Positions 21,713-40,089 of a DNA stretch of 64,000 nt are shown piece by piece. The notes beneath the pieces were generated by a model. That model was not told the DNA's origin and did not search any database. It saw nothing but the letters and a program-made list of their open reading frames with translations. Positions within the stretch are counted from its first letter, which is position 1. Each line of letters begins with the position of its first letter. The stretch covers positions 259-64,258 of the forward strand of contig DASRQS010000136.1 of NCBI GenBank assembly GCA_035696365.1. Direction: 5' to 3'. The translations under genes and the position numbers were made by a program. The stretch comes from Gaiellales bacterium (GTDB lineage Bacteria > Actinomycetota > Thermoleophilia > Gaiellales > JALYLC01).

Positions 21713-22951
21713 CTATGCGAGGACGTCGATTTGGCTTCCGGCCTCGGGCAGCCGGACGCCCGCAGTGGTCACGGGGTCGTCCTCCTCGGCGCCCGGCTCC
21801 GCGGCGAGGCGCCGGCGGGCCGCCGCTTCCCGGTCGTCCTGCGCGGCCTGCCGACGGCTGCCGTCGGTCACGTCCAGGTTCAGCACCGGCAGGCCCTGCG
21901 CCTCGAGCGAGCGACGCAGCTCGTCGCTCGCGAGCATGAGCGTCTGTGCGGCCTGTGGGTTGTCTGCGCGGACGGTGGCCGAGATCCCGTCCGGGCCGGA
22001 GTGCAGGTGGATCTCGACTGCGCCGAGCTCCTGCGGGTGGAGCAGGATGCGGGCGCTGCCACCGCCCTGCCCGGCCGTGAAGCGGATCGCCACCTGCGTA
22101 GCGTGCGCCAGCTCGCTCAGCCGCACGGGCGCCGCGGACGGCGGCGGGGAAGGAGCGACAGGGCTCGTCGCCGGTGCCGTCTCGACCCGCGCTGCGGCCG
22201 GGGCCAGGGTCGTGGGCGCCGCGACGGTCTGGTCGTTGTCCGCCGGCTGCGGGGCCGTCGGTTGCGGCAACTGCCCGGCGCTGGCCGGTGCGCGCGGCGG
22301 CACCTGCGCAGCGTCTGCCTCGATGTCGGCCTGCGCAGTCGGAGCCGGGGCCGTCGGCAGCGGGGGAGCAGCCGCTGGCTTCGGAGCTGCGTGCGTTGCA
22401 TGCGGCGGGGCGGGATCCGCGCCGGAAGCCGCAGGCTGAGGTGTGGCGGGCGCGGCCGCTGGCTGCGGAGCGGCCGGGGCGGTCGGGTCCTGCACCGGTG
22501 CGGTCGCCGCTTCGCGAACGGTGGCGGCGATCGGCGTCTCGCCGGCGAGCGCGGCTGCAGGGCCGGGCGGCTGCTCGCCGGGGTCCGCGGCCGGGCCGGT
22601 CGACGGGGGGACGACCTGACCCGGCTGCGCCGCTCCGACGTCGGGTGCCTGCGGCTGAAGGGGGGCGGCAACCGCAGACGAGGCCGCGAGCGCCAGGGCG
22701 ACATCCGCCGGGGGGACGGCAGTCGTGGCTCCCTTTTCGTCCTCGTGGCCGGGAGAGTCGCTCTCGGCCTTGGCACCTTCCGCATCGGCGGTCCGGGTGT
22801 CTGATCTGGCGCCGCTCCCAGGCGGCCCGCCGGCTGCCGTGGCAAGCGCTTCGGCGAAGCTCTCGCCCGGCGGTGCACCGCCGGGCGGCGACGCCGGCTC
22901 CGGCGCGATCGCCCCCTCCGGTCCCGTCACCCTCGGCGACGGGGGGGTCAT
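21713..22951 (-). CDS. fliK: Hook-length control protein FliK (Pro/Ala-rich ruler plus Flg_hook domain)
   Basis: C-terminus ARILLHPQELGAVEIHLHSGPDGISATVRADNPQAAQTLMLASDELRRSLEAQGL after a long P/A-rich N-terminal region. The ATG at 22951 lies 9 nt after the SLT stop. The remainder of track ORF 21713..23842 was rejected. Confidence 0.8.
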   Translation of the reverse strand: MTPPSPRVTGPEGAIAPEPASPPGGAPPGESFAEALATAAGGPPGSGARSDTRTADAEGAKAESDSPGHEDEKGATTAVPPADVALALAASSAVAAPLQPQAPDVGAAQPGQVVPPSTGPAADPGEQPPGPAAALAGETPIAATVREAATAPVQDPTAPAAPQPAAAPATPQPAASGADPAPPHATHAAPKPAAAPPLPTAPAPTAQADIEADAAQVPPRAPASAGQLPQPTAPQPADNDQTVAAPTTLAPAAARVETAPATSPVAPSPPPSAAPVRLSELAHATQVAIRFTAGQGGGSARILLHPQELGAVEIHLHSGPDGISATVRADNPQAAQTLMLASDELRRSLEAQGLPVLNLDVTDGSRRQAAQDDREAAARRRLAAEPGAEEDDPVTTAGVRLPEAGSQIDVLA

Positions 22952-22959
22952 GAGCTCGG

Positions 22960-23547
22960 TCAAGGCGCGCTCCTCTCGCTCTTCAAGCGCTCGTAGTGGG
23001 CCAGCACCTTCTGGACGTAGTTCTGGGTCTCGGGGTAGGGCGGCACGCCGCCATACCGCTCGACCGCGCCCGCGCCGGCGTTGTAGGCGGCTAGTGCGCG
23101 CACCGGGTCGCCGCCGAAGCGGGCCAGGTCGTTGCGCAGGTAGCGGGCGCCCCCGTCGATCGACTGCATCGGGTCGTACGGATTGGTGACGCCGAGGCCG
23201 GCCGCGGTGCCCGGCATCAGCTGCATCAGGCCCTGCGCGCCGGCCGAGCTCGTCGCGTGCGGGTTGAAGCCCGACTCCTGCGAGATCACGGCCTGCAGCA
23301 GCAGCGGGTCGACGCCGTAGGTGGCCCCGGCCTTGTTGATCGCGTCGAGGTACGGCGCGGCAGCCGGGTCGCCCGCGGCGCCGGTCGTCGCTGCCGGAGT
23401 GGCCGGCGCTGGGGCGGTCGACGCCTGCGAGAGCGCGGTGGCGAAGGTCGTCGCAGGCGTCGCGGCCTGCACAGGCGCCGCCGGGGCAGCCGGCGGTGGC
23501 GAGGGGACGAGCGACTCGATGCGCGCCAGCACGCTCGCGAGGCTCAC
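22960..23547 (-). CDS. Lytic transglycosylase (SLT domain)
   Basis: [34 protein letters not shown] ... AYNAG. The GTG at 23547 overlaps the fliJ stop (GTGA). The N-terminal part of track ORF 22960..24189 was rejected. Confidence 0.85.
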
Positions 23548-24005
23548 GCCACACCTCCCAGGTGCTGCTTGCGCATCGCCAGGGAGATCTCGTCGCCCGC
23601 GGCGCGCTCGGCGCGCCGGGCGAGATCGTCGTGGACCGAGCGCTGGCGGTCTTCGAGCCGATCCAGCGTCTCGCGATCGCGCGCGGCCGAGGCCAGCTGA
23701 CTCCGTCCGATCGCCACGTGTCCCGCCTGCGCCTCGGCGCGCATCCGCGCCTCGCCGAGCTCGCGCTCGCAGCGCTCGAGGTAGGCCTGCCGCACGGCGA
23801 GATCCCTCGCGCTCGAGATCCCGGGCGACGCCGCGCAGGCACCGGTGAGGACGGCCTCGGCGCTGTCGAGCTCCCCGCGGAGCTGCGCCGCGCGATCGAG
23901 CTCGTGGGCGAGCTGGCGCATGGCGACGAGCTCCGTGTGCTTGCGGAGCGTCCTGATGGACTCGAGTTTGAATGCGAAGCGGCGTCCGGTCATCGGCAGG
24001 GGCAC
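23544..24005 (-). CDS. fliJ: FliJ-like flagellar export chaperone (coiled coil)
   Basis: About 150-aa helical protein ([32 protein letters not shown]...) at the head of the fliK-flgD-flgE operon. The start is either GTG 24005 or ATG 23993. Confidence 0.6.
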
Positions 24006-24021
24006 TCGTGTGCCCGGCTGG

Positions 24022-24048
24022 TAATCGGCAGCGCGGTTCCGCTATTGA
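24022..24048 (-). promoter_or_regulatory. Candidate sigma-28-type promoter (TCAA-N15-GCCGATTA) upstream of fliJ
   Basis: On the minus strand, TCAA (24048-24045), a 15-nt spacer, then GCCGATTA (24029-24022). It lies 17 nt upstream of GTG 24005. Confidence 0.3.
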
Positions 24049-24157
24049 GGCCGCCGCGCGGCCACGGCTCGGCCGGCCCGTTTGCGGCGGTCCGGGCGTG
24101 CGTGGACTCGCCGCCCGGGCGGCGCTATCGTGGGCGCGTCTACAGGAGGTGAGAGCC

Positions 24158-24982
24158 GTGTCGTCCGGCCCCTCGGATTCCGAGCTCAAGTCGCGCCATC
24201 GCGCGATGTGGGCCTCCGGTGACTACCCATCCATGGTCGAGACCTTCCTGCTGCCGCTCGGGCCGCGGCTCGTCGACGCCTGCGGGATCGGTCCCGCTAT
24301 GCGCGTTCTGGATGTCGCCGCCGGCACTGGCAACGCCTCGCTCCCGGCCGCGCAGCGCGGAGCAAGCGTGACCGCCAGCGACCTGACGCCGGAGCTGCTG
24401 GAGGCGGGTCGCCGGCGCGCGGACGCCGAGGGTCTCGCGCTCGAATGGGCCGAAGGTGACGCCGAGCAGCTGCCGTTCGAGAACGGGTCGTTCGACGTCG
24501 TGATGTCGTCGATCGGCGCGATGTTCGCGCCCCACCACCAGGACGTCGCGGACGAGCTCGACCGCGTGTGTCGCCCGGGCGGCACGATCGGGCTGCTCAG
24601 CTGGACGCCCGAGGGCATGATCGGCGCGCTCTTCCGCACCATGGGGCCGTTCGCGCCGGCGCCGCCGCCCGGCGCGCAGCCTGCTCCGCTGTGGGGCAGC
24701 GAGGAGCACGTGCGCGAGCTGCTCGGCGACCGGGTCGACTTCGGCACGCTCGATCGGGAGATGCTGGAGATCACCGCCTTCGAGCATCCGCACGACTACG
24801 GCGAGCATTTCAAGCAGCGCTACGGACCGACGATCGCCGCCCAGGCCAACGCGCGCCGCAACGAGCGCGAGGCCGAGTTCGAGCAGGCGCTCGACGCGTT
24901 CTGCGACGAATGGAACTGCGGAACGCCGGAGAGCGCGCGCTTCATGAAGGAGTACCTGCTCGCGGTCGGCACCCGGGTGTGA
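24158..24982 (+). CDS. Class I SAM-dependent methyltransferase (type 11)
   Basis: AGGAGG at 24144-24149, then GTG 24158. Motifs [26 protein letters not shown] and [10 protein letters not shown]. Confidence 0.85.
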
Positions 24983-24984
24983 CG

Positions 24985-26781
24985 TCAGCGTTCGAGTCCG
25001 CGGGGCAACCGCCTCCGCAGGCGGTACATCCTGAGACGTCCGTAGTCCTTCGCGGTTGGCATGTGGCCGACGTAGTCGCAGCCGAGCTCCCGGCGCTGGG
25101 CGAGCTCCAGGGCCGCCGCGAACTGCTCGGTCACGTAGACCGTGCCGGGTGGGGTCACGGGCTCGATCCGCGCGGTGCGGCTGACGTGCGACCCGGCGAA
25201 CACGCGCACGCCCAGGACGGGATCCTCGATGGGGAACACGGGCCCGATGTGCAGGCCCATTCGCAGCACGAGCTGGTCTTCCAATCCGAGCGTGCGCATG
25301 TCGGTCGCCGACATCGCATCCTGCAACTCGAGCGCGCAGTTGGCGGCATGCACGGTGTCGGTCAGGACGACGTACAGCGCGTCGCCCCAGGTGTTCCGGT
25401 GCTCGATCACCTCGTCGTAGCGCGCGAGCACCGCGGCGAAAGCCCCCAGGACGCGCTGCACGACCGCTGGCACCTGCTCGTCCGCGAGCCTCGAGAAGCC
25501 CTTGACGTCGGCGAAGAGCATCGCCCGCATGACCCGTCCGGACGGGTCCGTGACGCCTCCGTTCGGGCCCGGCCGGGGCGCCGGGGGGTCTTCGACCGGA
25601 ATCACGGAGACGGCCTGCCCCGCAGCGCGCCAGGTGGCGATGTCCTGCGCGGTGCCGGCCTCGCCGTCGCCGGGATCGGGGTTCCCGTCCCACACGGCGA
25701 GTTGCCGCACATCGGCGTCCAGATAGCGCGCGCGCAGCAGGGCGAGCCCCATGGCGAGCTCACCGGCGTAGCGGTAGAGGGCGTCGTCGGGCACGAACGC
25801 GTCGTCCGTCGCGTAGGTGACGGTGAACGCCGCGCTCAGGCAGCGGTGGAAGCGCTCCACCCAGGCGGAGCCCGAAGGGGCGACCGAGCTCTCGATGAAC
25901 GCATCGCGAGCGAACGGCAGCACGACATGGAGCTCGGTTCCGCGCGCGAGCAAGGCCTCGGCGCACAGGATGTCCGCGCCGCTCGCCAGCGATCCGTACG
26001 CGTAGCGCGGCGTGTCGCGCGCCAACTCCGCCTGAATGGCATCCGAGACGCCCTGCTCGGCCTCGGCCGGAAACCGCCCGGACGCCCCGACGGCGGCGAT
26101 CCGATGACCGCAGAAATGCGCCACGCCGGGCCCGGCGAGGATGCCGATGATCTCGGCATCCATGCCGGTGAGCGCGCACACGAGGCGCAGCTGCCGGCGG
26201 GTCGTCGCCAGCGATCCGTAGTCGCCACCATGGGTGGCGGCCGCCCGTTCGAGCGCGTCGCGCGCGGCAGGCTCGTCTCCGAGCAGGAGCCTCGCCTCGG
26301 CCTCGGTGGCAGCGGCGTAGTACGAGTCCTCGCCGCTTCGATCGAGCACGGCGAGGGCCGTGCGGGCGAGCTCATGCGCCCTCGCCGGATCGCCGGCGAC
26401 GAGGCTCAGCGTCGCGGCGTTGATCGCCGGGTAGTAGCCGCCTGTGCGGCCATGGATCGCTTCGTACAGATCGCGCGCGCGCACCGCCCCGGCGCGCCGT
26501 TCCCATGGTGGGGCCTCGAGCGCGAGGTCCTTGGCGATGCGCGCCCGGAGTGCTGCGATGTCTTCCTCTTCCGAAGCGCTCAATCCATACTGCAGGAAGC
26601 GCTGCGCCGCCTCTCCCGTGGCGCCGGCGCGCGCGAGCGCAAGCACCGCGCGGTGCTTCAGCCAGAGATCGTCGGGACGCTCGGCGAGCCCCTGCTCCGC
26701 GAGATCGACTGCGGTCAGCAGCTCGCCGCGCCGCTCTGCCCCCTTGACGGCCTCGAGCCAGTCGGTGGCCGGCCGATTCAC
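24985..26781 (-). CDS. Three-module signalling protein: TPR-like (DUF4071-like) N-terminus, SLOG (DprA/LOG-like) centre, class III nucleotide cyclase C-terminus
   Basis: GGYYPAINAATL; YGSLASGADILCAEALLARGTELHVVLP and LAVWDG..GEAGTAQD; cyclase blocks MLFADVKGFS, NTWGDALYVV, RMGLHIGPV and GSHVSRTARIE. Confidence 0.8.
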   Translation of the reverse strand: MNRPATDWLEAVKGAERRGELLTAVDLAEQGLAERPDDLWLKHRAVLALARAGATGEAAQRFLQYGLSASEEEDIAALRARIAKDLALEAPPWERRAGAVRARDLYEAIHGRTGGYYPAINAATLSLVAGDPARAHELARTALAVLDRSGEDSYYAAATEAEARLLLGDEPAARDALERAAATHGGDYGSLATTRRQLRLVCALTGMDAEIIGILAGPGVAHFCGHRIAAVGASGRFPAEAEQGVSDAIQAELARDTPRYAYGSLASGADILCAEALLARGTELHVVLPFARDAFIESSVAPSGSAWVERFHRCLSAAFTVTYATDDAFVPDDALYRYAGELAMGLALLRARYLDADVRQLAVWDGNPDPGDGEAGTAQDIATWRAAGQAVSVIPVEDPPAPRPGPNGGVTDPSGRVMRAMLFADVKGFSRLADEQVPAVVQRVLGAFAAVLARYDEVIEHRNTWGDALYVVLTDTVHAANCALELQDAMSATDMRTLGLEDQLVLRMGLHIGPVFPIEDPVLGVRVFAGSHVSRTARIEPVTPPGTVYVTEQFAAALELAQRRELGCDYVGHMPTAKDYGRLRMYRLRRRLPRGLER

Positions 26782-26860
26782 GCCACCGCCGCGCCGGCGA
26801 CGGGCCGCGCGTGCGGCAGCGGCAGCTTCAGCATCGGCTGAGTGTACGCAGGCCGGAGGC

Positions 26861-28348
26861 TTAGCCGAACTGGTGGTGCCAGAAGTCGTAGAAGGACGCG
26901 ATTCCGGCGTGCACGCCGGACTGCTGCTCGGCCTTGACGAACATGTTGGCCGAGACGTCCGTCCACACGATCACGGAGCAGGTCGTCCCGTGAACGTTGG
27001 TCAGCTTCATCTTCGCGACGAGATCACACTGCCCGGGGGCCTGATAGCAGGCGAAGCGACCGCTGACGGGTCCCATCACGCCGCCGCTCGTCTCGTGGCT
27101 CCACGGACCTTCGCCTCTCCAGTGCGTGCGGTCGCAGCCGCCCGTCGCGGCCTTCAGTTGCGGGTCGGGATTGCCGCCGCGCGCCGCCACCTCGCCGGGA
27201 CCATGGAGCTTGTAGATCGGCTGGAGGTGCGCATTGTCGATGAAGCGATCGAGATGCACCAGGGTGCGGCCGTGCTTCGGATCGTTGTAGTCGCAGTTGA
27301 TGGTCGCCACACCGCCGGCGTGCTCGGTGTTCGCGAAGTTGCAGGCGCTACGGCGAATCACCTTGGGGATCGAGAGCCAGAGCTTGGCCTGGTCGGGATC
27401 GACGCCCGCGGGCACGGCGGCCTTGTCGGTGGCGGTCGTCGTGCCGCCCGCGTTCCCCGCAACGGTGCCCGGAGTGGAGGTCGGCGTGTTCGAGGGGCTC
27501 GCCGAGTTGTCATTGCCGAGCTGGTAGGCAGCGAACAGCGCCAACGCGACGAGGGCCACGACGCCGAGGCCGGCCAGCCCGAGCAACCAGCGCGGAGCGT
27601 CCGAGAGCCCACCGGACTTGCGTCCGCCTGAGCCACCGCCGGCGCCGCCTTGCGCGGGCCGGGGCGAGCCGCCAACGGGGCCGGCACTGGCCGAGCGCGG
27701 CGCGCTTGCCATACCGGCCGACGAGTGGGCCGGCGATTGCAACGCGGGGGCGACGCTCTCCTCGGTCGAAGGCTCCTGGGTCTGACCCGCTTCGTCCGTG
27801 TTGCGAACGTCCCCCGGCATGGCGGCCGGAACACCTGCCGGCGCGCCGGCCTCGAGTGGCAGCGCCGCTTCTGCGTTGCCTTCGCCCGCGCCGATGCGTT
27901 CGAGCAGGTTCAGGAGCCGCGAGACGTCGTATTGCCAGCGCGGACCGTCGGCCATCTCGACGGCGTTGCGAAGCGCGAGCGGCGCCAGCGCTCCCGGAAG
28001 GTCGTCGAGGACAGGCATGACCGCTCCGCCGACCAGTGCAGGGACGACGCGGATATTGCCGCGCCCGAGTGCCGTCTCCACTTCGAGACGCACGTAGTCG
28101 TCCACGTGGTTGAGACGGCGCTCGCCTCGGGTGTCGGCAGCCGTCAGCCAGCGCGGGCCGATCATGACGAACAGCACGTCGCAGCACGACACCGCGGCCT
28201 CGATCGCGTGCTTGAACTCGACACCGATGTCAATCGTGTCGACGTCCATGAAGACGTTGTCCGGGCCGAGCCTGCCGGCCAGGGCGTCGTAGAGGCGGCC
28301 GGCCTGACCGCTCGTGTCCTCGCGCCGGTAGCTGATGAAGACACGCAT
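26861..28348 (-). CDS. Membrane-anchored TIR-domain protein (cytoplasmic TIR, single TM, extracytoplasmic Cys-rich domain)
   Basis: MRVFISYRREDTSGQAGRLYDAL ... DYVRLEVETAL (TIR_2-like). A/G/P-rich linker, then TM WLLGLAGLGVVALVALALFAAY, then a 180-aa C-terminal domain with six Cys. Confidence 0.85.
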   Translation of the reverse strand: MRVFISYRREDTSGQAGRLYDALAGRLGPDNVFMDVDTIDIGVEFKHAIEAAVSCCDVLFVMIGPRWLTAADTRGERRLNHVDDYVRLEVETALGRGNIRVVPALVGGAVMPVLDDLPGALAPLALRNAVEMADGPRWQYDVSRLLNLLERIGAGEGNAEAALPLEAGAPAGVPAAMPGDVRNTDEAGQTQEPSTEESVAPALQSPAHSSAGMASAPRSASAGPVGGSPRPAQGGAGGGSGGRKSGGLSDAPRWLLGLAGLGVVALVALALFAAYQLGNDNSASPSNTPTSTPGTVAGNAGGTTTATDKAAVPAGVDPDQAKLWLSIPKVIRRSACNFANTEHAGGVATINCDYNDPKHGRTLVHLDRFIDNAHLQPIYKLHGPGEVAARGGNPDPQLKAATGGCDRTHWRGEGPWSHETSGGVMGPVSGRFACYQAPGQCDLVAKMKLTNVHGTTCSVIVWTDVSANMFVKAEQQSGVHAGIASFYDFWHHQFG

Positions 28349-28596
28349 CGTTCAGCCCACGCGACCGGCCGGCGCACTCACGCCCATGCCTCGAGCCGCC
28401 ACGCCCGTCCGCCCGGCAACCCGCATCTCGAGACCGAATCTGCCTTCACTCACGCGGGTCCGCGCTCCGACCGTCACCGGCTGACTCGCCGGGATCATCC
28501 GTGGATGGTAGCCCGCGCGACTGCCCGTGTCCAGAGCGGCGGAGCCTCCATTGATTCGCGTGCCGGATCCTCGCGGAATCGTTTGCCTATCGGTTC

Positions 28597-28620
28597 AGAG
28601 CTCATTCTGAAATGAGCTCT
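28597..28620 (-). terminator. 9-bp perfect hairpin abutting the stop of the small secreted ORF
   Basis: agagctcat-tctgaa-atgagctct read directly from the DNA. It is AT-rich relative to its surroundings. Confidence 0.4.
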
Positions 28621-28832
28621 CAGGCGATCCGATGAGGCCAGGCTGCCATGGCCAGGGCCCGCTCGCCCGGCGAAATGTACGTGCGTCCGCCGACGGGCTT
28701 GCGGTTTGCCTGGGCGAGAGACACCGTGCTGTGGCGAATGGCGGGCGTCCGCAGCTGACCGGCGTCAGCGGCTGGCACGGCGAGCGCGCTCAGCAGCAGC
28801 GCACATGCGATGGTGTGGATGCGACGGTTCAT
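28620..28832 (-). CDS. Small secreted protein (hypothetical, 70 aa)
   Basis: Signal peptide MNRRIHTIACALLLSALAVPAADA with an AxA cleavage site. It sits between the STAND regulator and the TIR gene on the same strand. Confidence 0.45.
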   Translation of the reverse strand: MNRRIHTIACALLLSALAVPAADAGQLRTPAIRHSTVSLAQANRKPVGGRTYISPGERALAMAAWPHRIA

Positions 28833-28978
28833 CGGTGCTCCGTTTCCTGACCGGGGCCGTCCGATACGGCCCGACCAGTCGAGCGTGCGCGGTCGCGCTT
28901 GCGACGGGCTATAGGCGCGCTTGCTGCCGCTTGGGAACGTCCTCGCGCCGTGCCCACTCGGCGCCGCGCGAACCGTCG

Positions 28979-31900
28979 TTAGACGGACGCGATCGCTTGG
29001 TCGATCGTGAGCGTTGCCGCTGCGGCGCGAGCCACGGCGAACCGCTTCGCGGCGTCCGGATCGAGTGCGCCGAGCGCGTGCTCGTAGCGGGCCTGAGGAC
29101 TGGGGTCGAAGCGCATCCCGAGTCGCTCCGCCAATCGCTCGCCGGCGCTCCAGAGGGCTCCGGCCGCCTCGGCCTCCCCGCCGGCGCCGGCCACGGCCGC
29201 AAGCCCGAGCAGGCAGTGCGCGGCGACAGCCTGGTACGGAGTGTCGCGTGAGGCCAGAAGGGCGGAGCGGTAGAGCTCCTCGGCTGCGTCGAGGTTGCCG
29301 GCACTCAACTCGAGGTCGGCCAGGGTCTGTGTCGTTCGAGCCACATTTCGGTCGTCACCTGCCTCGCGCGCGACCGTCAGTGCGCGGCCCAGCAGGTCGC
29401 GCGCCGACGGGACGGCACGTCGATCGAGTGCCAATTCGCCGAGGAACCTCAACCGCCCCGCCATCGCTCCTCTGTCGTTCAGCGCGGTGAAGAGCTCGAG
29501 CGACTCCTCGGCTGCCGCCCGCGCCTCCCGATTCCGCCCTCGCTCGCCGGCAAGCTCGGCGAAACCACGCAGCGCCTCGGCCAGCCCGGCCTCGTCGCCG
29601 AGCTCGCGCAGACTCTGGATGCTTTCCTCGTAGCGTTGCTCGGCGACGTCGACGTTGCCGGCGAGAGCGCTCAGGTGGGCGCCGGCCGCGAGCGCGCGCG
29701 CTCGCCCCTCCGGGAGCGCCGGCGGCGCGAGTGCGAGAACCCCGTCGAACCAGCGCGCGCCTTCCTGGTACTGGCCTCGGCGGCGCCAGAAGATCTCGAG
29801 TGCGGTCGCCAGACGCAAGGCGACGGTGCTCTCCTGTTGTGCCACAGCCCAGCTCAGGGCGGCGCGGAAATTGTCCTGCTCGGCGACCAATGCCCGGAAC
29901 CACAGCTCCTGCTCGGGACCGCGAAGCTGCCGTTGAGCCGTCTCCGCCAGCGCGACGAAGTGCTCGGCGAGACGGCGGTGGACGTCGTCCCTCTCGTCGC
30001 CCTCCTCCAGCCGCTCCCAGGCAAACTCGCGGATGGTCTCGAGCAGCCAGAAGCGCTCGCCAGTTCGCTGCAGGAGGCTCTTCTCGACGAGAGCCTGCAG
30101 CGTGTCGAGATCGGCTGCGCAAATGGCCTCGGCTGCCTCGTTGGTGCAGCCGCCGGCGAACACGGCCAGTCGAGCGAGAAGCTGCTGTTCGTCCGGTGCA
30201 AGCAGGTCGAACGACCAGGCGATGCTCGCGCGCAGTGTGTTCTGGCGTGGTTCTCCGCCTCGCCTCGCCTTGAGTAGATCGAGGCGCTCGGCGAGCCGCC
30301 CGAGCATCTGTGCCGGCGAGAGCACGTTCGTGCGCGCAGCGGCGAGCTCGATCGCAAGCGGCAGGCTGTCGAGGCGCCGGCAAAGCTCGCGGACGTCGTC
30401 GCTCGGACCGATGCGGGCGCGCGCGCAGAACAGCGCGACGGCCTCCGGCTCCGCAAGCGCGGGCACGCGGTAGGCGATTTCGCCCTCGACGAGCAGCAGC
30501 TCGCGGCTGGTGACGAGGATTTTCAAGTGTGGTCCGGCTTCGAGCAGTTCCGTCACCAGGGGTGCAGCAGCGAGCACGTGCTCGAAGTTGTCCAATACGA
30601 GCAGGGTCCTCCGCTCGCGTAGTGCGTCGCCGAGCTTCCCCGCATCGGTGTTCGCCAGCGCGTCCGCGATCGCGGGCCCGACCAGGGCGGCTTCAGCGAG
30701 CGGCGCGAGCGCGACGAAGTACGCGCCGTCGCGAAATTCCCGCCAGAGCTCGTGGGCGACCTCGAGCGCGAGTCGCGTCTTTCCGCTGCCACCCGCGCCC
30801 GTCAGCGTCAGAAGACGCGTGTCGGCATCTCGTAGGAGCGCCACGACTTCCGAGACCTCTCTCTCCCGGCCGACGAAGGAGCTCGTGGGACGCCGCAACG
30901 AGATGTTCCCGGTTCCTCGCAGAGGCGGGAAGGACTCGTCGCCGAGCTGGAAGACCCGCACGGGATCCCCGATGTCCCTGAGCCGCTGCTCGCCGAGATC
31001 GCTGACCGCCGTCTGGACGAGGTCGCGGGTGGCCTGCGAGATGAGGACCTGGCCGCCCGACGCGACGGCGCAGATCCGCGCTGCGCGGTGCACGTCCATG
31101 CCGACGTAGCCCTCGTCCGTCAGCACCGGCTCGCCGGTATGCACGCCCATGCGTACCCGCAGTGGCCCGTCCGCGAGCGCGCGCTGCGCGTCGAGCGCGG
31201 CGGCGACAGCGTCAGTCGCGGTGGCGAAGACTGCGAAGAACGCGTCGCCTTGGGTGTCCACCTCCACGCCGGCGTGCGTCTCGAGCGCCTCACGCAGTCG
31301 CTGGCGGTGCTCGGCGAGCGCATTGGCGTAGCTTGCGCCCAGCGTTTCCAGCACGCGGGTCGACCCTTCGACGTCGCAAAACAGTAGCGTCACGGTACCT
31401 TGCGGCAAGTCACGACGCGGTGCGCGCGCCGCTGCCGCCGCCTCCGGTTCGAGCTGGGGGTCATGGTTGAGGATCGCCCGTTCCAGCCGCTGAAGCTCCT
31501 CCGTGGGCTCGAGTCCGAGCGTGTCGCCCAGCAAGCGATGCGTCTGCTGGTACAGCTCGAGCGCCTCGGCCTGGCGGCCGGCGCGGTAGAGCGCGAGCAT
31601 CAGTTGGGCGCGCAGCCGTTCGCGCAGCGGGTGCTCGGCGATCAGCGCCCTCAGCTCGCCGATCAGCTGCGTCTCGCGGCCGAGCTCGAGGTCGGCCGCG
31701 ATGCGCTCCTCGAGCGCAGCAACGCGCGCCTCCTCCAGGCGGCCGATGGCCTCTGCCGCGAACCGGTCATAGGTGAAGTCCGCGAGCGGCGGTCCGCGCC
31801 AGAGCGCGAGCGCCTGCGCGAGGGCCGTCGCTCGGGCCATCGGCTCGGAGCTCCGCGCCTCGCGCAGCACCGTCTCGAATCGCTCCGCGTCCAACTCACC

Positions 31901-32173
31901 CGGCCTCACACGTAGCACGTAGCCGGGTGGGCGGGTGAACAACACGTCCTCACCGAGGGCCTTGCGCAGTGCTGAGACGTACACGTGAACACTCGTGCGC
32001 GCTGCGGGCGGCGCCTGGCCGTCCCAGACCAGATCGATCAGGCGATCGACCGACACCACCTCGTTCGGGTGCAGCAGCAGCACACCGAGCAGCGATCGCT
32101 GGTTGCCACCGCCGATCACCACGGAAGTACCGTCGGCGAGCACTTCCAGCGGGCCCAGAATGCCGAATTCCAT
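28979..32173 (-). CDS. SARP (OmpR-wHTH plus BTAD) - class III cyclase - NB-ARC/STAND ATPase - TPR regulator
   Basis: N-terminus MEFGILGPLEV...RSLLGVLLLHPNEVVSVDRLIDLVW and BTAD; cyclase TLLFCDVEGST..DTQGDAFFAVF..RMGVHTGEP..GMDVHRAARI; P-loop LTGAGGSGKTRLA; long TPR-like tail. Confidence 0.9.
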   Translation of the reverse strand: MEFGILGPLEVLADGTSVVIGGGNQRSLLGVLLLHPNEVVSVDRLIDLVWDGQAPPAARTSVHVYVSALRKALGEDVLFTRPPGYVLRVRPGELDAERFETVLREARSSEPMARATALAQALALWRGPPLADFTYDRFAAEAIGRLEEARVAALEERIAADLELGRETQLIGELRALIAEHPLRERLRAQLMLALYRAGRQAEALELYQQTHRLLGDTLGLEPTEELQRLERAILNHDPQLEPEAAAAARAPRRDLPQGTVTLLFCDVEGSTRVLETLGASYANALAEHRQRLREALETHAGVEVDTQGDAFFAVFATATDAVAAALDAQRALADGPLRVRMGVHTGEPVLTDEGYVGMDVHRAARICAVASGGQVLISQATRDLVQTAVSDLGEQRLRDIGDPVRVFQLGDESFPPLRGTGNISLRRPTSSFVGREREVSEVVALLRDADTRLLTLTGAGGSGKTRLALEVAHELWREFRDGAYFVALAPLAEAALVGPAIADALANTDAGKLGDALRERRTLLVLDNFEHVLAAAPLVTELLEAGPHLKILVTSRELLLVEGEIAYRVPALAEPEAVALFCARARIGPSDDVRELCRRLDSLPLAIELAAARTNVLSPAQMLGRLAERLDLLKARRGGEPRQNTLRASIAWSFDLLAPDEQQLLARLAVFAGGCTNEAAEAICAADLDTLQALVEKSLLQRTGERFWLLETIREFAWERLEEGDERDDVHRRLAEHFVALAETAQRQLRGPEQELWFRALVAEQDNFRAALSWAVAQQESTVALRLATALEIFWRRRGQYQEGARWFDGVLALAPPALPEGRARALAAGAHLSALAGNVDVAEQRYEESIQSLRELGDEAGLAEALRGFAELAGERGRNREARAAAEESLELFTALNDRGAMAGRLRFLGELALDRRAVPSARDLLGRALTVAREAGDDRNVARTTQTLADLELSAGNLDAAEELYRSALLASRDTPYQAVAAHCLLGLAAVAGAGGEAEAAGALWSAGERLAERLGMRFDPSPQARYEHALGALDPDAAKRFAVARAAAATLTIDQAIASV

Positions 32174-38427: not shown

Positions 38428-40089
38428 CTAGACCGATGCAAGGGCCGGGCGCAGCGAGTGCAAGCGCGAGGCAATCACCGCGTCCGCGGCCGCAGCGCTC
38501 GTCGCATGCCCGGTCACGGCGGAGACGAATTCGTCTCCGCGCAGCGCGTACAGGCTCGTGGTCGTCTCGGCGGTCACGGTGGCGGTGCGCGGGATAGCGC
38601 GGATGAGCGCGATCTCACCGAAGCCCGCGCCCGCTGCGAGCACGACTTCTTCCCTTCCTGGAGGCGCGATCCGCACGCTTCCCTGGTCGATGAGGTAGTA
38701 GCGATCGCCGGCGTCCCCGGCGCGGAACAGCACCTCGCCCGCGGCCAGCGACACCGGCTCGAGTGCGCTCGCGAGCTGCTCGATCATCGCGCCCGGCAGC
38801 GGCGCGAAGATCGGATCGCCTCGTAGCAGCTCTATCCGGCGCTCCTGGACGGTCGGGACGTCGAGTCGGCGCAGGCGTTTCCAGAGCGGGAGCGTCACGA
38901 TCGGAAGCAGGGCGCCTGTGACCACCAACGTCGCGCGCACGCCGAGCAGGTCGAGCAGCGCAGGCGTGACCGCCGAGCCGACTGCGACGGATGCGATCAC
39001 GATGCTCTCGAGCACGCCGAACACACGGCCGAGCAGTTCGCCCGGCGTTGCCCGTTGCAGCAGTGTGACCGCCGAGACGTCGACGAGCGTGTTGCCGACG
39101 CCCACGAGGGCCATCATCACGAGCGCGAGCGGCAGGCTACTGGCGAGCGCGATCAGTGCGATCGGCGCGCCCCACAGGATCAGCCCGCACACGAACACCG
39201 TCGTCAGGCGTGCGCGCTGCGACAGCATGAGCGCCGGCACCGCGCCCACGAGCCCGCCGATGCCGACCGCCGCCACCAGTGCACCGACACCGCTGTCGCC
39301 CGCTTGCAGCAACTCGAGGGCCGCCACCACCGTGAGCACGTTGAGCGCACCGCAGACGAGCACCTGCGCCCCGTAGAGCGAGACGAGCACGCGCACGTCA
39401 CCGTTCCGGAGGATCGCGGCGAGGCCCGCCAGCACTCCGTGGCTCGGCTCGTCGCCGGCCGCCTCGCCGCCGCCTTCCGCGGACGCGGTGGCGGCCGCGG
39501 CGCTGCGCGGATGGACTCGCGTCACTGCGATGGCCGAGAGCGTGTAGGCGACGACCGGGACGAGGAATGCGAGCGTGGTCCCGAACGCCGCGAGCGCAGC
39601 GCCGCCGAGCGCCGGGCCGATCACGCTGCCGGTCGACTCGATCGTGCTCTGCGCCACGTTGCAGGCGGTCAGTTCCTCGGGCTCGCGCGTGAGCGTGGGG
39701 AGCATGGCTCCCTGGGCCGGCCAGAAGAGCGTGCCCACGAGCGTGTTCACCGTCGCCAGCCCGATCAGGACGAAGAGTGGCCCGGTCAGCGCGGCACAGA
39801 TGCAGAAGCCCGTCATGATCAGAGCTCGGGCGGCATCGGTCAGGAACAGAACGCGCTGCTTGGGATAGCGGTCCACGAGCGAGGCCAGGAAGGGCGCCGC
39901 GAGCGCCGCCGGGACGAGGCGGAACACCTGTGCGAGCCCTACCCAGGTCGCGCCTGCACGGTCGTAGACGAGCACGCTGAAGGCGACCGAGTACGACCAG
40001 TTGCCGATCGTCGAGCCCGCCAGCGCCAGTTGCGCGCGGCGCACCGCCTCGTTCGACCAGACCGCGCGCAGCGCTCCCCCCGAACCCAC
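38428..40089 (-). CDS. MFS transporter fused to a C-terminal cyclic-nucleotide-binding domain
   Basis: 12-TM MFS body, then LRGDPIFAPLPGAMIEQLASALEPVSLAAGEVLFRAGDAGDRYYLIDQGSVRI...GAGFGEIALIRAIPRTATVTA (cNMP-binding fold motif FGE..L....RTA). Confidence 0.88.
   Translation of the reverse strand: MGSGGALRAVWSNEAVRRAQLALAGSTIGNWSYSVAFSVLVYDRAGATWVGLAQVFRLVPAALAAPFLASLVDRYPKQRVLFLTDAARALIMTGFCICAALTGPLFVLIGLATVNTLVGTLFWPAQGAMLPTLTREPEELTACNVAQSTIESTGSVIGPALGGAALAAFGTTLAFLVPVVAYTLSAIAVTRVHPRSAAAATASAEGGGEAAGDEPSHGVLAGLAAILRNGDVRVLVSLYGAQVLVCGALNVLTVVAALELLQAGDSGVGALVAAVGIGGLVGAVPALMLSQRARLTTVFVCGLILWGAPIALIALASSLPLALVMMALVGVGNTLVDVSAVTLLQRATPGELLGRVFGVLESIVIASVAVGSAVTPALLDLLGVRATLVVTGALLPIVTLPLWKRLRRLDVPTVQERRIELLRGDPIFAPLPGAMIEQLASALEPVSLAAGEVLFRAGDAGDRYYLIDQGSVRIAPPGREEVVLAAGAGFGEIALIRAIPRTATVTAETTTSLYALRGDEFVSAVTGHATSAAAADAVIASRLHSLRPALASV

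Follow-up and report, generated by a model that had tools for sequence, protein, structure and literature searches.

Can TIR signalling in a bacterium be driven from outside the cell? The question is raised by a gene for a TIR membrane protein that is carried by an uncultured soil actinobacterium, within a window of 64,000 nucleotides (the whole stretch of DNA that was analysed). In the literature searched, characterised bacterial TIR proteins sit in the cytosol, and little has been established about the way in which they detect infection; if a TIR domain were tethered to a sensor shared with kinases, TIR signalling would be drivable from outside the cell. An outer module shared with kinases, together with a constant TPR-S/cyclase neighbour, points to a putative Toll-like-receptor-style signalling route in bacteria, as judged from sequence comparison. 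The gene and the predicted parts of its product are as follows.

26861..28348, minus strand: whole gene of the TIR-linker-TM-ectodomain protein, 495 aa (open reading frame list; about 24 full-length homologues)
27899..28348, minus strand: predicted cytoplasmic TIR domain, residues 1-150 (Pfam TIR_2; best PDB sequence match SARM1 TIR; 85% mean orthologue identity)
28082..28084, minus strand: codon of Glu89, the candidate catalytic glutamate (aligned to the Glu of SARM1 VHKEIVTAL; codon checked)
27635..27898, minus strand: low-complexity A/G/P/S cytoplasmic linker, residues 151-238 (composition; orthologue identity 43%)
27590..27634, minus strand: conserved juxtamembrane motif GSGGRKSGGLSDAPR, residues 239-253 (identity to TIR orthologues and kinase versions)
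27524..27589, minus strand: single TM helix, residues 254-275 (Kyte-Doolittle peak 2.62; positive-inside bias)
27413..27523, minus strand: T/A/G/P-rich extracytoplasmic linker, residues 276-312 (variable, 41% identity)
26864..27412, minus strand: extracytoplasmic alpha/beta domain with 6 Cys, residues 313-495, of an unnamed family (no Pfam match; AF2)

The sequence-only reading had divided the protein into a TIR domain at residues 1 to about 150, an A/G/P/S-rich linker of about 100 aa, one TM helix and a C-terminal domain of about 180 aa with six cysteines, and this division was borne out. Pfam TIR_2 covers residues 3-133 (E=4e-10, 40.7 bits against a cutoff of 28), and residues 151-252 consist of 21% A, 20% G, 12% P and 12% S. 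In a Kyte-Doolittle analysis with a 19-residue window, the sole hydrophobic segment of the protein peaked at 255-273; the helix noted earlier, WLLGLAGLGVVALVALALFAAY, corresponds to residues 254-275 and is conserved in homologues. The C-terminal domain comprises 183 aa and its six cysteines were found at positions 336, 352, 405, 434, 441 and 457, with two further cysteines (55 and 56) inside the TIR domain. All parts of the architecture recur in the homologues, which are 53-72% identical to the protein. Among orthologues the mean pairwise identity of the TIR domain was 85%; the ectodomain reached 83%, the juxtamembrane motif 78% and the TM helix 75%, against 43% with indels for the cytoplasmic linker, which varies in length from 73 to 115 aa, and 41% for the linker after the helix. 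Since the parts are conserved across homologues, it was concluded that the architecture is real and that the hydrophobic stretch is not a product of chance.

The orientation of the protein in the membrane was predicted from hydropathy and the positive-inside rule; in addition, the protein has no signal peptide, and its fusion partners were taken into account. Three Lys or Arg residues are present in the 15 residues before the helix and none in the 15 after it, and the same charge bias was observed in 76 of 79 single-TM relatives (mean K+R of 3.9 before and 1.1 after). The N-in/C-out arrangement proposed earlier agrees with this bias in the protein and its relatives and also with the kinase fusions described below; a kinase domain must sit in the cytoplasm, so the TM-ectodomain module that it shares with the TIR protein would lie outside the cell. 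Three outcomes that would have spoken against a receptor were also considered, and none was seen. A hydrophobic segment that does not span the membrane is disfavoured by its conservation. A cytoplasmic location of the C-terminal domain is contradicted by the charge bias, which instead puts the N-terminal side in the cytoplasm, and an unstructured or unconserved C-terminal region by its identity among orthologues and by its predicted fold (pLDDT 90.6, pTM 0.88). Hence, the prediction of a single-pass membrane receptor with its TIR domain in the cytoplasm and a disulfide-braced alpha/beta domain directed toward the envelope is well supported.

The outer domain was modelled as an alpha/beta fold by AF2 from an alignment of 16 sequences, distant members among them. 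This model replaced an earlier one from 10 close homologues, which had a pLDDT of 58.9 and gave meaningless Foldseek matches. In Pfam, zero families were matched by residues 310-495 at E<=10, and the domain is neither PASTA nor PknH_C. The Foldseek comparison suggested earlier gave no convincing PDB relative for the folded model: nothing was found at E<1e-3 in the PDB and BFVD, and no fold family was assigned. An exhaustive profile search of 1.84 billion cluster representatives gave 28 ectodomain matches, and the domain was preceded by a TM helix in every match whose full sequence was inspected; a search with a merged ectodomain profile gave only 13 matches, mostly fragments, and added nothing. 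Upstream of the helix, the relatives carry a TIR domain, a Ser/Thr kinase or a short tail. The ectodomain is also homologous to the ectodomain of about 150 aa of many TIR-TM proteins (hhalign 97.8%), and the survey of homologues showed the TIR-TM-ectodomain architecture to be conserved. Four cysteines are invariant across this superfamily and the other two are lost jointly with their intervening loop, as would be expected if the cysteines form disulfides; the predicted pairs are 336-352, 405-434 and 441-457.

A resemblance of the outer domain to the ectodomains of actinobacterial Ser/Thr kinases had been noted in the sequence-only reading, and the profile searches gave this resemblance a firm basis. 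Proteins with a Pkinase domain were matched by the ectodomain profile in the exhaustive search (P0025, 6.7e-96; P0123, 2.6e-34; P0125, 7e-25; P0126, 4.4e-20), and the complete module of juxtamembrane motif, TM helix and ectodomain follows Pkinase in these four and in P0030. The juxtamembrane motif is 80% identical to that of P0025 and 53% identical to that of P0030. The protein is thus comparable to the actinobacterial receptor kinases of the PknB/PknH type, which are built as kinase-linker-TM-sensor, in that the module is homologous (50-61% identity with P0025 and P0030); it differs from them in that the output is a TIR domain rather than a kinase and that the ectodomain is of neither of their named types. 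These alignments strongly support a second use of the TM-plus-ectodomain module, as the sensor part of receptor Ser/Thr kinases.

On the cytoplasmic side, Glu89 aligns with the Glu in the SARM1 motif VHKEIVTAL, which we take to be the catalytic E642. This residue is invariant in 103 of 103 TIR domains of the clade, as are the motifs FISYRRED, NVFMDVD and DDFVRLE. The invariant Glu89 and these motifs argue that the TIR domain is probably enzymatic, of the SARM1/bacterial NAD-cleaving type. The best PDB sequence match of the domain was the SARM1 TIR, a weak match (E=0.07) in which FISYRR, VF-DV and D-V--E--TAL are common to both proteins and include the candidate catalytic Glu. SARM1 is a cytosolic/mitochondrial ARM-SAM-TIR octamer without a TM receptor module, unlike the protein described here. 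The membrane-anchored TIR architecture is not rare: JGI metagenomes contain at least 564 loci of the TIR clade, and TM helices follow the TIR domain in 59 of the 73 loci that could be assessed. No description of this architecture was found in the searchable literature.

It had also been proposed that the arrangement matches that of eukaryotic Toll-like receptors, and this comparison held in part. As in the animal Toll-like/IL-1 receptors, the ectodomain is predicted outside and the TIR domain inside, with a single TM helix between them, and in both it is probably the association of receptor molecules that sets off the TIR output. The inside/outside logic therefore stands, whereas the order of the polypeptide is reversed. 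The protein is type II-like, with an N-terminal TIR domain and without an LRR or Ig ectodomain; neither an LRR match, a type I orientation nor a C-terminal TIR domain was found in it. In addition, the TIR domain described here keeps its catalytic Glu and is probably enzymatic, whereas that of the animal receptors is an adaptor-recruiting scaffold. Nothing points to common descent of the whole architecture with these receptors.

The strongest hint at the use made of the TIR output comes from a partner gene that was absent from the sequence-only reading.

24985..26781, minus strand: partner gene, 598 aa (Pfam TPR-S 3.6e-10, Guanylate_cyc 8.2e-9), with TPR-S at about residues 1-195, an uncharacterised middle domain at about 196-415 and a class III cyclase at about 416-598

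The partner gene starts 79 nt past the stop of the TIR gene on the same strand, and no terminator was found between the two. What is new here is that a gene for TPR-S, an unknown domain and a class III cyclase comes after the TIR gene in all eight loci, directly downstream in the window and in seven of seven homologous loci (L001-L007). The other flanks are rearranged among these loci and the pair is kept; the loci represent one lineage with 78-86% nucleotide identity, and their shared gene order is partly inherited. A profile search for related loci returned only two GTDB species genomes, and the carriers are uncultured Actinomycetes.

The cyclase domain of the partner scored 35.7 bits for Guanylate_cyc against a cutoff of 21.9. 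Its motifs LFADVKGFS, NTWGDA and TARIE are conserved, so that both metal-binding Asp residues and the transition-state Arg are kept. In 12 of the 13 intact cyclase orthologues examined, Ser (HVSRTARIE) stands in place of the transition-state Asn. The base-specifying Lys/Glu position is occupied by Asn, in departure from the canonical Lys/Asp or Glu/Cys residues, and these two substitutions make the activity and the product of the cyclase uncertain. For the middle domain, Pfam gave no match and a PDB profile search gave noise only; its motifs GHR, YGSLASGADIL and WDG..G.AGTA leave the impression of a SLOG/DprA-like domain. More distant cyclase orthologues (61-65% identity) adjoin TIR-WD40 genes or lie 1.7 kb from them, and TIR-WD40 belongs to a different TIR clade (30% identity over 64 aa); no TIR gene lies within 5 kb of one further orthologue, L100. 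A TIR-TM protein with a related ectodomain, P0088, is encoded two genes from a TPR-S protein and a patatin.

A pairing of this kind has been described in type VIII Thoeris, in which the TIR protein ThsB is accompanied by the effector ThsI, with TPR and CMP-hydrolase domains (10.64898/2025.12.03.692087). It was proposed that the TPR of ThsI perceives canonical cADPR made by the TIR protein, and a role in TIR signalling had been predicted before (10.64898/2025.12.03.692087). Both systems consist of two genes, for a TIR protein and a TPR partner, and the two genes are co-oriented in the window and in the seven homologous loci as in a Thoeris operon; the putative equivalence of TPR-S and the TPR of ThsI is taken from a statement in the preprint. 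The partner in type VIII Thoeris is a nucleotide hydrolase, whereas the partner described here has a class III nucleotide cyclase as its output and departs from the described cell-killing or metabolite-depleting effector types of Thoeris; no nucleotide cyclase is present among the Thoeris effector types in the text and available supplements of 10.64898/2025.12.03.692087. In addition, the TIR protein described here is predicted to be membrane-anchored with an extracytoplasmic domain, unlike that of type VIII Thoeris. The latter occurs mainly in Pseudomonadota (10.64898/2025.12.03.692087), whereas the present system is found in uncultured Actinomycetes and outside a defence island.

From the architecture and the gene pair we infer a signalling chain that runs from TIR through TPR-S to the cyclase. 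In the main reading, to which a probability of about 45% is given, a cue from outside would cluster the receptor, the TIR domain would produce an NAD-derived signal, TPR-S would read it and the cyclase would relay it as a cNMP. The first step would be the binding of an envelope or extracellular cue that brings receptor molecules together. The TIR domain is held on a tether of about 100 aa, the flexibility of which is suggested by a linker with 43% identity and 73-115 aa in length between flanks with 75-85% identity, and transmission by induced proximity is therefore likely rather than by a rigid conformational relay. Induced proximity would fit both outputs of the module, since TIR NADases require self-association for their activity and dimerisation leads receptor kinases to trans-phosphorylate. 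The assembled SARM1-like TIR would then cleave NAD+ through Glu89 to an ADP-ribose-derived messenger, possibly canonical cADPR, which the presumably co-transcribed partner would sense via TPR-S, turning on its class III cyclase domain. Finally, the cNMP would act on cNMP-binding proteins, for which one candidate is encoded in the window.

38428..40089, minus strand: MFS transporter with a C-terminal cNMP-binding domain, a tentative reader of the cyclase product (Pfam)

An MFS-cNMP_binding gene also lies directly upstream of the TIR gene in three of the homologous loci (L004, L005 and L007) and adjoins the cyclase orthologue in L100.

The outer domain presumably senses at the envelope, and ordinary sensing of the envelope or environment is slightly favoured over phage defence at the adsorption stage because of the housekeeping context of the genes and the slow evolution of the ectodomain. 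The fullest form of the proposal is possible but doubtful: the TIR domain would be a transmembrane signalling output that can be swapped with a Ser/Thr kinase, and a ligand would act through an NAD messenger and the TPR-S-cyclase on cAMP or cGMP, in environmental or envelope sensing and not in suicide defence. If the chain is true, TIR, TPR-S and cyclase join NAD-derived and cyclic-nucleotide signalling in one cascade, and the large TPR-S-cyclase family (>2000 database matches) gains a function. Such a two-tier second-messenger cascade would be an enzymatic, functional counterpart in prokaryotes of Toll-like receptor signalling. The system would also be tractable for the study of bacterial TIR activation: domains could be exchanged with those of the kinase versions, dimerisation could be forced and ligands could be screened on the small disulfide-bonded domain.

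Among other explanations, it is conceivable though unlikely that the protein is a self-contained suicide or defence effector, in which phage adsorption or envelope damage would cluster the receptor, the TIR domain would deplete NAD+ in abortive infection and the cyclase would be a separate regulator. NAD+ depletion by TIR domains is an established effector mode (10.64898/2025.12.03.692087), the SARM1-type catalytic Glu is invariant and most members of the wider TIR-TM clade are without a conserved neighbour. No general partner for this clade was found in 15 long metagenome loci, in which the immediate neighbours were heterogeneous, so that most membrane TIR proteins appear to be without an adjacent partner; only SLATT (7 ORFs matched) and TPR-S relatives (a few of 80 loci) recur near members of the wider clade. 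In the subfamily described here, however, the cyclase gene is always co-oriented, close downstream of the TIR gene and not separated from it by a terminator. The locus lacks the enrichment in defence genes expected of a Thoeris-type system: flagellar, methyltransferase, SARP regulator and pst genes are the neighbours in the window, no defence island is present and PADLOC gave weak TIR-level matches only. The strong conservation of the ectodomain is likewise unlike the pattern of a phage arms race.

A complex of receptor and cyclase without a diffusible messenger is distinctly unlikely. TPR-S would here dock on the TIR domain or other cytoplasmic segments, clustering would activate the cyclase and the TIR domain would be mainly a scaffold, like that of animal TLR signalling. 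TPR repeats are classical peptide-binding modules, and the TPR region of some partner orthologues also matches MAP3K_TRAF_bd, the TRAF-binding TPR of ASK1. Furthermore, conservation is high in the juxtamembrane motif and in the C-terminal helix of the TIR domain. The invariant catalytic Glu nevertheless argues for an enzymatic TIR domain, and the cyclase family also pairs with TIR-WD40, which is better explained by a shared small-molecule signal than by a conserved interface.

It is improbable that the outer domain is structural, anchoring or oligomerising the protein in the envelope and only localising the TIR or kinase activity, in the manner of the rings of TiME. The soluble domain of mycobacterial TiME is TM-anchored, disulfide-bonded and ring-forming (PMC8378821), and it was the best Foldseek match of the ectodomain model (E=3.6e-3, prob 0.91, TM 0.38), followed by UTRA and PsbP-like folds. 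Both TiME (Rv3705c, PDB 7cu8/7cu9) and the domain described here are TM-anchored, extracytoplasmic alpha/beta domains of actinobacteria in which an antiparallel sheet lies between helices and the disulfides are conserved, and members of the present family with just a short cytoplasmic tail exist. The structural likeness is marginal, though, and too weak for a transfer of function; the sequences show no detectable similarity and a cytoplasmic signalling domain is missing from TiME, whereas fusion to both kinase and TIR outputs is the hallmark of a sensor module.

In Pycsar and Pucsar, where a cNMP made by a cyclase acts on a CNBD-TIR or TM effector, a class III-type cyclase gene also stands beside the TIR gene; unlike in these systems, the cyclase described here carries an N-terminal TPR-S and an unknown domain, and the direction of signalling is likely opposite. 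A reverse flow of this type, in which the TPR-S-cyclase would sense and its cNMP activate the TIR effector, has precedent in established cyclase-plus-TIR operons (10.64898/2026.08.12.744502) and is highly improbable here, as the TIR effectors of Pucsar and Pycsar have a cyclic-nucleotide-binding domain whereas the cytoplasmic part of the present protein is TIR plus a low-complexity linker (Pfam gave no cNMP_binding match in it), and the conserved ectodomain would be left without a role.

With regard to the main reading, in which signalling runs from the receptor to the cyclase, two genes upstream of the TIR gene were considered as further components and rejected. The SARP-cyclase-NB-ARC-TPR gene (28979..32173), as a partner, is absent from all homologous loci, and a 70-aa signal-peptide ORF (28620..28832), as a cognate secreted ligand, is not conserved. 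A leader peptide that seemed to be conserved ahead of the TIR start was rejected as well, the conservation being that of a promoter and a short hairpin; most of the leader is missing from L002 and L006. Rfam gave no match in the window. The promoter-like sequence is the only sigma-70-like match in 24800-29100.

28505..28533, minus strand: promoter-like TGGACA-17-TACCAT upstream of the TIR gene

Both of its hexamers are conserved in eight of eight loci.

The TIR gene (26861..28348, minus strand) encodes a protein of 495 amino acids, in which TIR_2 was matched by Pfam at residues 3-133 (E=4e-10, above the curated cutoff); matches to ThsB-like TIRs in NCBIfam and PADLOC were partial and far under the family thresholds. 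A Kyte-Doolittle scan found one strongly hydrophobic segment, with a peak of 2.62 at residues 255-273, and the runner-up segments, all below 1.5, lie within the TIR fold. Around the TM helix (residues 254-275), three K/R residues are found in the preceding 15 residues and none in the following 15. A, G, P and S make up 65% of residues 151-252, and six Cys follow the helix (336, 352, 405, 434, 441 and 457). The TIR, linker, helix and Cys described in the sequence-only reading were all found at the positions it assigned. About 24 full-length homologues of 53-72% identity were retrieved by database search, and the helix and the six Cys are present in every one without a frameshift.

Mean pairwise identity of TIR-protein regions, nine intact orthologues
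TIR domain: 85%
Cytoplasmic linker, 73 to 115 aa long: 43%
Juxtamembrane motif GGRKSGGLSDAPR: 78%
TM helix: 75%
Post-TM linker: 41%
C-terminal domain: 83%

From these values it was concluded that the protein consists of two globular parts and a membrane segment, all of them conserved, connected by two fast-evolving tethers. The C-terminal region is therefore not of the unstructured or unconserved kind that would have refuted the sequence-only reading.

The main new finding is the partner gene. By tblastn it comes immediately after the TIR gene, on its downstream side, in each of the seven homologous loci (L001-L007), also where frameshifts broke the gene calls; the other flanks vary between loci. 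L002, L003, L004 and L006 are MFD long-read MAG contigs, where gene calls understate conservation and tblastn is needed because of such frameshifts.

Features beside the TIR gene
24985..26781, minus strand: partner gene, 598 aa, 79 nt downstream of the TIR gene on the same strand
Within 28440..28540, minus strand: promoter-like TGGACA-17-TACC(A/C)T, both hexamers kept in 8/8 loci (promoter/leader alignment A6)
28620..28832, minus strand: 70-aa ORF with signal-peptide-like N-terminus (MNRRIHTIACALLLSALAVPAADA/GQ...), between the SARP gene and the TIR promoter
28979..32173, minus strand: SARP/BTAD, class III cyclase, NB-ARC/STAND ATPase and TPR, 1064 aa
38428..40089, minus strand: MFS transporter fused to a cNMP-binding domain

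The promoter-like element precedes the TIR start by about 160 nt and is the sole sigma-70-like site within 24800-29100; no terminator-like site was found between the two genes. A short inverted repeat (CCGGCGAG..GCCGG), kept in 8/8 loci, opens the leader after the promoter; the remainder of this leader of about 130 nt is variable and mostly deleted in L002/L006. No Rfam match was obtained for promoter or leader.

According to Pfam, the partner carries an N-terminal TPR-S ("Tetratricopeptide Repeats-Sensor") and a class III cyclase; a conserved region of about 220 aa lies between them. The family gave 2077 matches, the best 120 all being about 590-640 aa long. The middle region had no sequence match in Pfam or the PDB and contains the highly conserved motifs HFCGHR, AYGSLASGADILWAEALL, LHVVLPF and LAVWDG..G.AGTA; it may be SLOG/DprA-like, and would then add another possible site for sensing nucleotides. 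In the cyclase, the two metal-binding Asp and the catalytic Arg are retained, whereas the transition-state Asn is replaced by Ser and the Lys/Glu specificity position is occupied by Asn. Cyclase activity is plausible.

The best PDB sequence match of the TIR domain, a weak one (E=0.07), was the SARM1 TIR, in which VHKEIVTAL aligns with VRLEVETAL of the window; the Glu of the SARM1 motif is the catalytic E642, to which E89 corresponds. E89 is invariant in 103/103 TIRs of the clade, as are FISYRRED, NVFMDVD..G and DDFVRLE, and hence the domain is probably an enzyme more than a mere scaffold. That the TIR protein would be a stand-alone effector depleting NAD is unlikely, considering the partner kept beside it. 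In type VIII Thoeris, a TIR is combined with an effector having CMP-hydrolase and TPR domains, which is activated by canonical cADPR and whose TPR, earlier predicted for TIR signalling by Burroughs and Aravind, was suggested as the perceiving part (10.64898/2025.12.03.692087); SLATT effectors (type VII Thoeris) also respond to canonical cADPR. By analogy with type VIII, the window TIR would make an NAD-derived messenger, which would be read by the partner TPR-S, or by TPR-S and the middle domain together, and this reading would control the cyclase. Direct docking by the partner TPR is somewhat less probable even than NAD depletion. The cyclase product may in turn be read by the MFS-cNMP_binding protein, a candidate receiver.

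In the sister genomes L004, L005 and L007, the MFS-cNMP_binding gene is the immediate upstream neighbour of the TIR gene, and in the related locus L100 it adjoins the cyclase orthologue; in the window, an insertion of about 9.8 kb parts it from the pair. The SARP gene, immediately upstream of the TIR gene here, is not kept beside the pair in homologous loci, and seems to belong to an inserted block with PstS-like and ABC phosphate-transport genes (32854 to about 37900). The 70-aa ORF, followed by a perfect hairpin GAGAGCTCATT-TCAG-AATGAGCTCTG, has no counterpart in L001-L007.

Partner orthologues (61-65% identity) were found in two further lineages, again neighbouring a TIR protein, which here belongs to a different clade and has WD40 propellers in place of the membrane module. 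These large TIR-WD40 proteins of 950-1037 aa (for example L013 5805..8918; L016 1..2329) would be a cytosolic-sensor counterpart of the membrane receptor; their gene adjoins the partner orthologue in L013-L015 and is 1.7 kb off in L016-L019. The partner orthologue of one lineage (L100) has no TIR within 5 kb.

The topology of the TIR protein rests on four independent arguments: charge bias, N-terminus, fusion partners and Cys pattern. A positive-inside bias was observed in 76 of 79 single-TM relatives, with means of 3.9 K+R on the N-terminal side and 1.1 on the C-terminal side. The protein begins with the TIR and has no signal peptide, which makes export of the 250-residue N-terminal segment implausible, and TIR requires the NAD+ of the cytoplasm. 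When 1.84 billion cluster representatives were searched exhaustively with HMMER, the ectodomain profile matched only 28 proteins, and the ectodomain follows the TM helix in each match whose full sequence was inspected. Helix and ectodomain are preceded by a Pkinase domain in P0025, P0030, P0123, P0125 and P0126, by a short tail in P0122, P0127, P0133, P0140 and P0143, and by TIR in the others inspected; since kinase domains are cytoplasmic, the outer part of the module should be extracytoplasmic. Cys 336, 352, 405 and 434 are invariant throughout the ectodomain superfamily, and the pair 441/457 is missing together with its intervening loop in P0125, P0127 and P0143; in the sequences compared, the Cys thus behave as disulfide pairs of an oxidising compartment do. 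The N-in/C-out topology of the sequence-only reading is supported on all four counts, and the likeness it suggested to Ser/Thr-kinase ectodomains proved to be homology. The kinase-fused relatives share the ectodomain (50-61% identity in P0025 and P0030) and also the juxtamembrane motif and TM helix, so the transmembrane sensor module as a whole was swapped between kinase and TIR outputs. Rigid transmembrane coupling is unlikely because of the disordered tether of about 100 aa. Induced proximity would fit both outputs, as TIR NADases work only when self-associated and receptor kinases phosphorylate each other in trans. Envelope sensing is plausible.

No Pfam family matched the ectodomain. AlphaFold modelling from close homologues gave pLDDT 58.9; after distant members were added, pLDDT 90.6 and pTM 0.88 were reached, with two helices, a beta-hairpin, two helices, four more strands and two helices in order. 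Foldseek gave no match under E=1e-3 in PDB or BFVD; the top PDB match, without family assignment, was the mycobacterial TiME soluble domain (E=3.6e-3, probability 0.91, TM-score 0.38). Next came the UTRA effector-binding domains found in GntR/HutC regulators, and PsbP. The TiME domain is likewise TM-anchored and has disulfide bonds (PMC8378821). By profile-profile comparison, the 6-Cys ectodomain of about 150 aa in shorter TIR-TM proteins (P0033, P0037, P0088 and others) is homologous to that of the window (hhalign 97.8%, E=7e-13, 136 columns), which is on this evidence an expanded member of a wider, unnamed superfamily. A purely structural ectodomain is improbable.

The pair is inherited within a lineage, in a chromosomal, housekeeping context (flagellar FliK, SLT transglycosylase, methyltransferase and pst genes), and these facts, together with an ectodomain conserved as much as the TIR, make us lean to ordinary sensing rather than defence. 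The FliK (Flg_hook) and SLT lytic transglycosylase genes lie at 21713..24189 (minus strand), in overlapping alternative frames of a 70-76% GC stretch. We would class the system as a hitherto undescribed form of TIR (Thoeris-like) signalling, combining a transmembrane, receptor-kinase-type sensor with a nucleotide-cyclase output. It differs from Thoeris proper in effector type and defence context, and from TLRs in the orientation of the TIR protein and the lack of LRR. The lack of a cyclic-nucleotide-binding domain in the TIR protein sets the system apart from Pycsar/Pucsar and makes the weakest rival, a reverse, Pycsar/Pucsar-like flow, very improbable.

The window ectodomain and TIR occur together in only 2 of 185,579 GTDB species genomes, both "uncultured Actinomycetes bacterium" MAGs, and no description of the TIR-TM-ectodomain architecture was found in the searchable literature. 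Between the homologous loci and the window, nucleotide identity is 78-86% across several blocks; these loci hence stand for a single lineage that has been rearranged locally. Frameshifts typical of long-read assemblies break P0019, P0021-P0024 and P0027, as well as neighbouring genes. The TIR clade comprises at least 564 confirmed loci in JGI metagenomes; among the best 80 of these, 53 have one TM helix and a 70-500-aa tail, 6 several TM helices, 11 a tail with no TM helix detected and 3 TIR only, while the contig ends within the remaining 7. Most members of this clade are thus membrane-anchored, and the outer domains are variable, some matching SnoaL-like or FGE-sulfatase families. Most long loci of the wider clade have no recurrent neighbour; near the shorter TIR-TM relative P0088, a different TPR-S protein with a patatin after it is encoded two genes away, and a SLATT gene precedes the TIR-4TM relative P0034. 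Tandem TIR-TM-FGE-sulfatase paralogues with a free FGE-sulfatase gene are present in the related locus L012 (1951..7555), and are another ectodomain type of the same clade. A second, different TIR system was seen in the sister genome L001 (1638..6730), 1 kb from the TIR-TM-ectodomain pair; it consists of TIR_2 (442 aa), SLATT_1/DUF4231 and a 1053-aa patatin/DUF3376 protein, and its TIR is 46% identical to that of the window over 149 aa.
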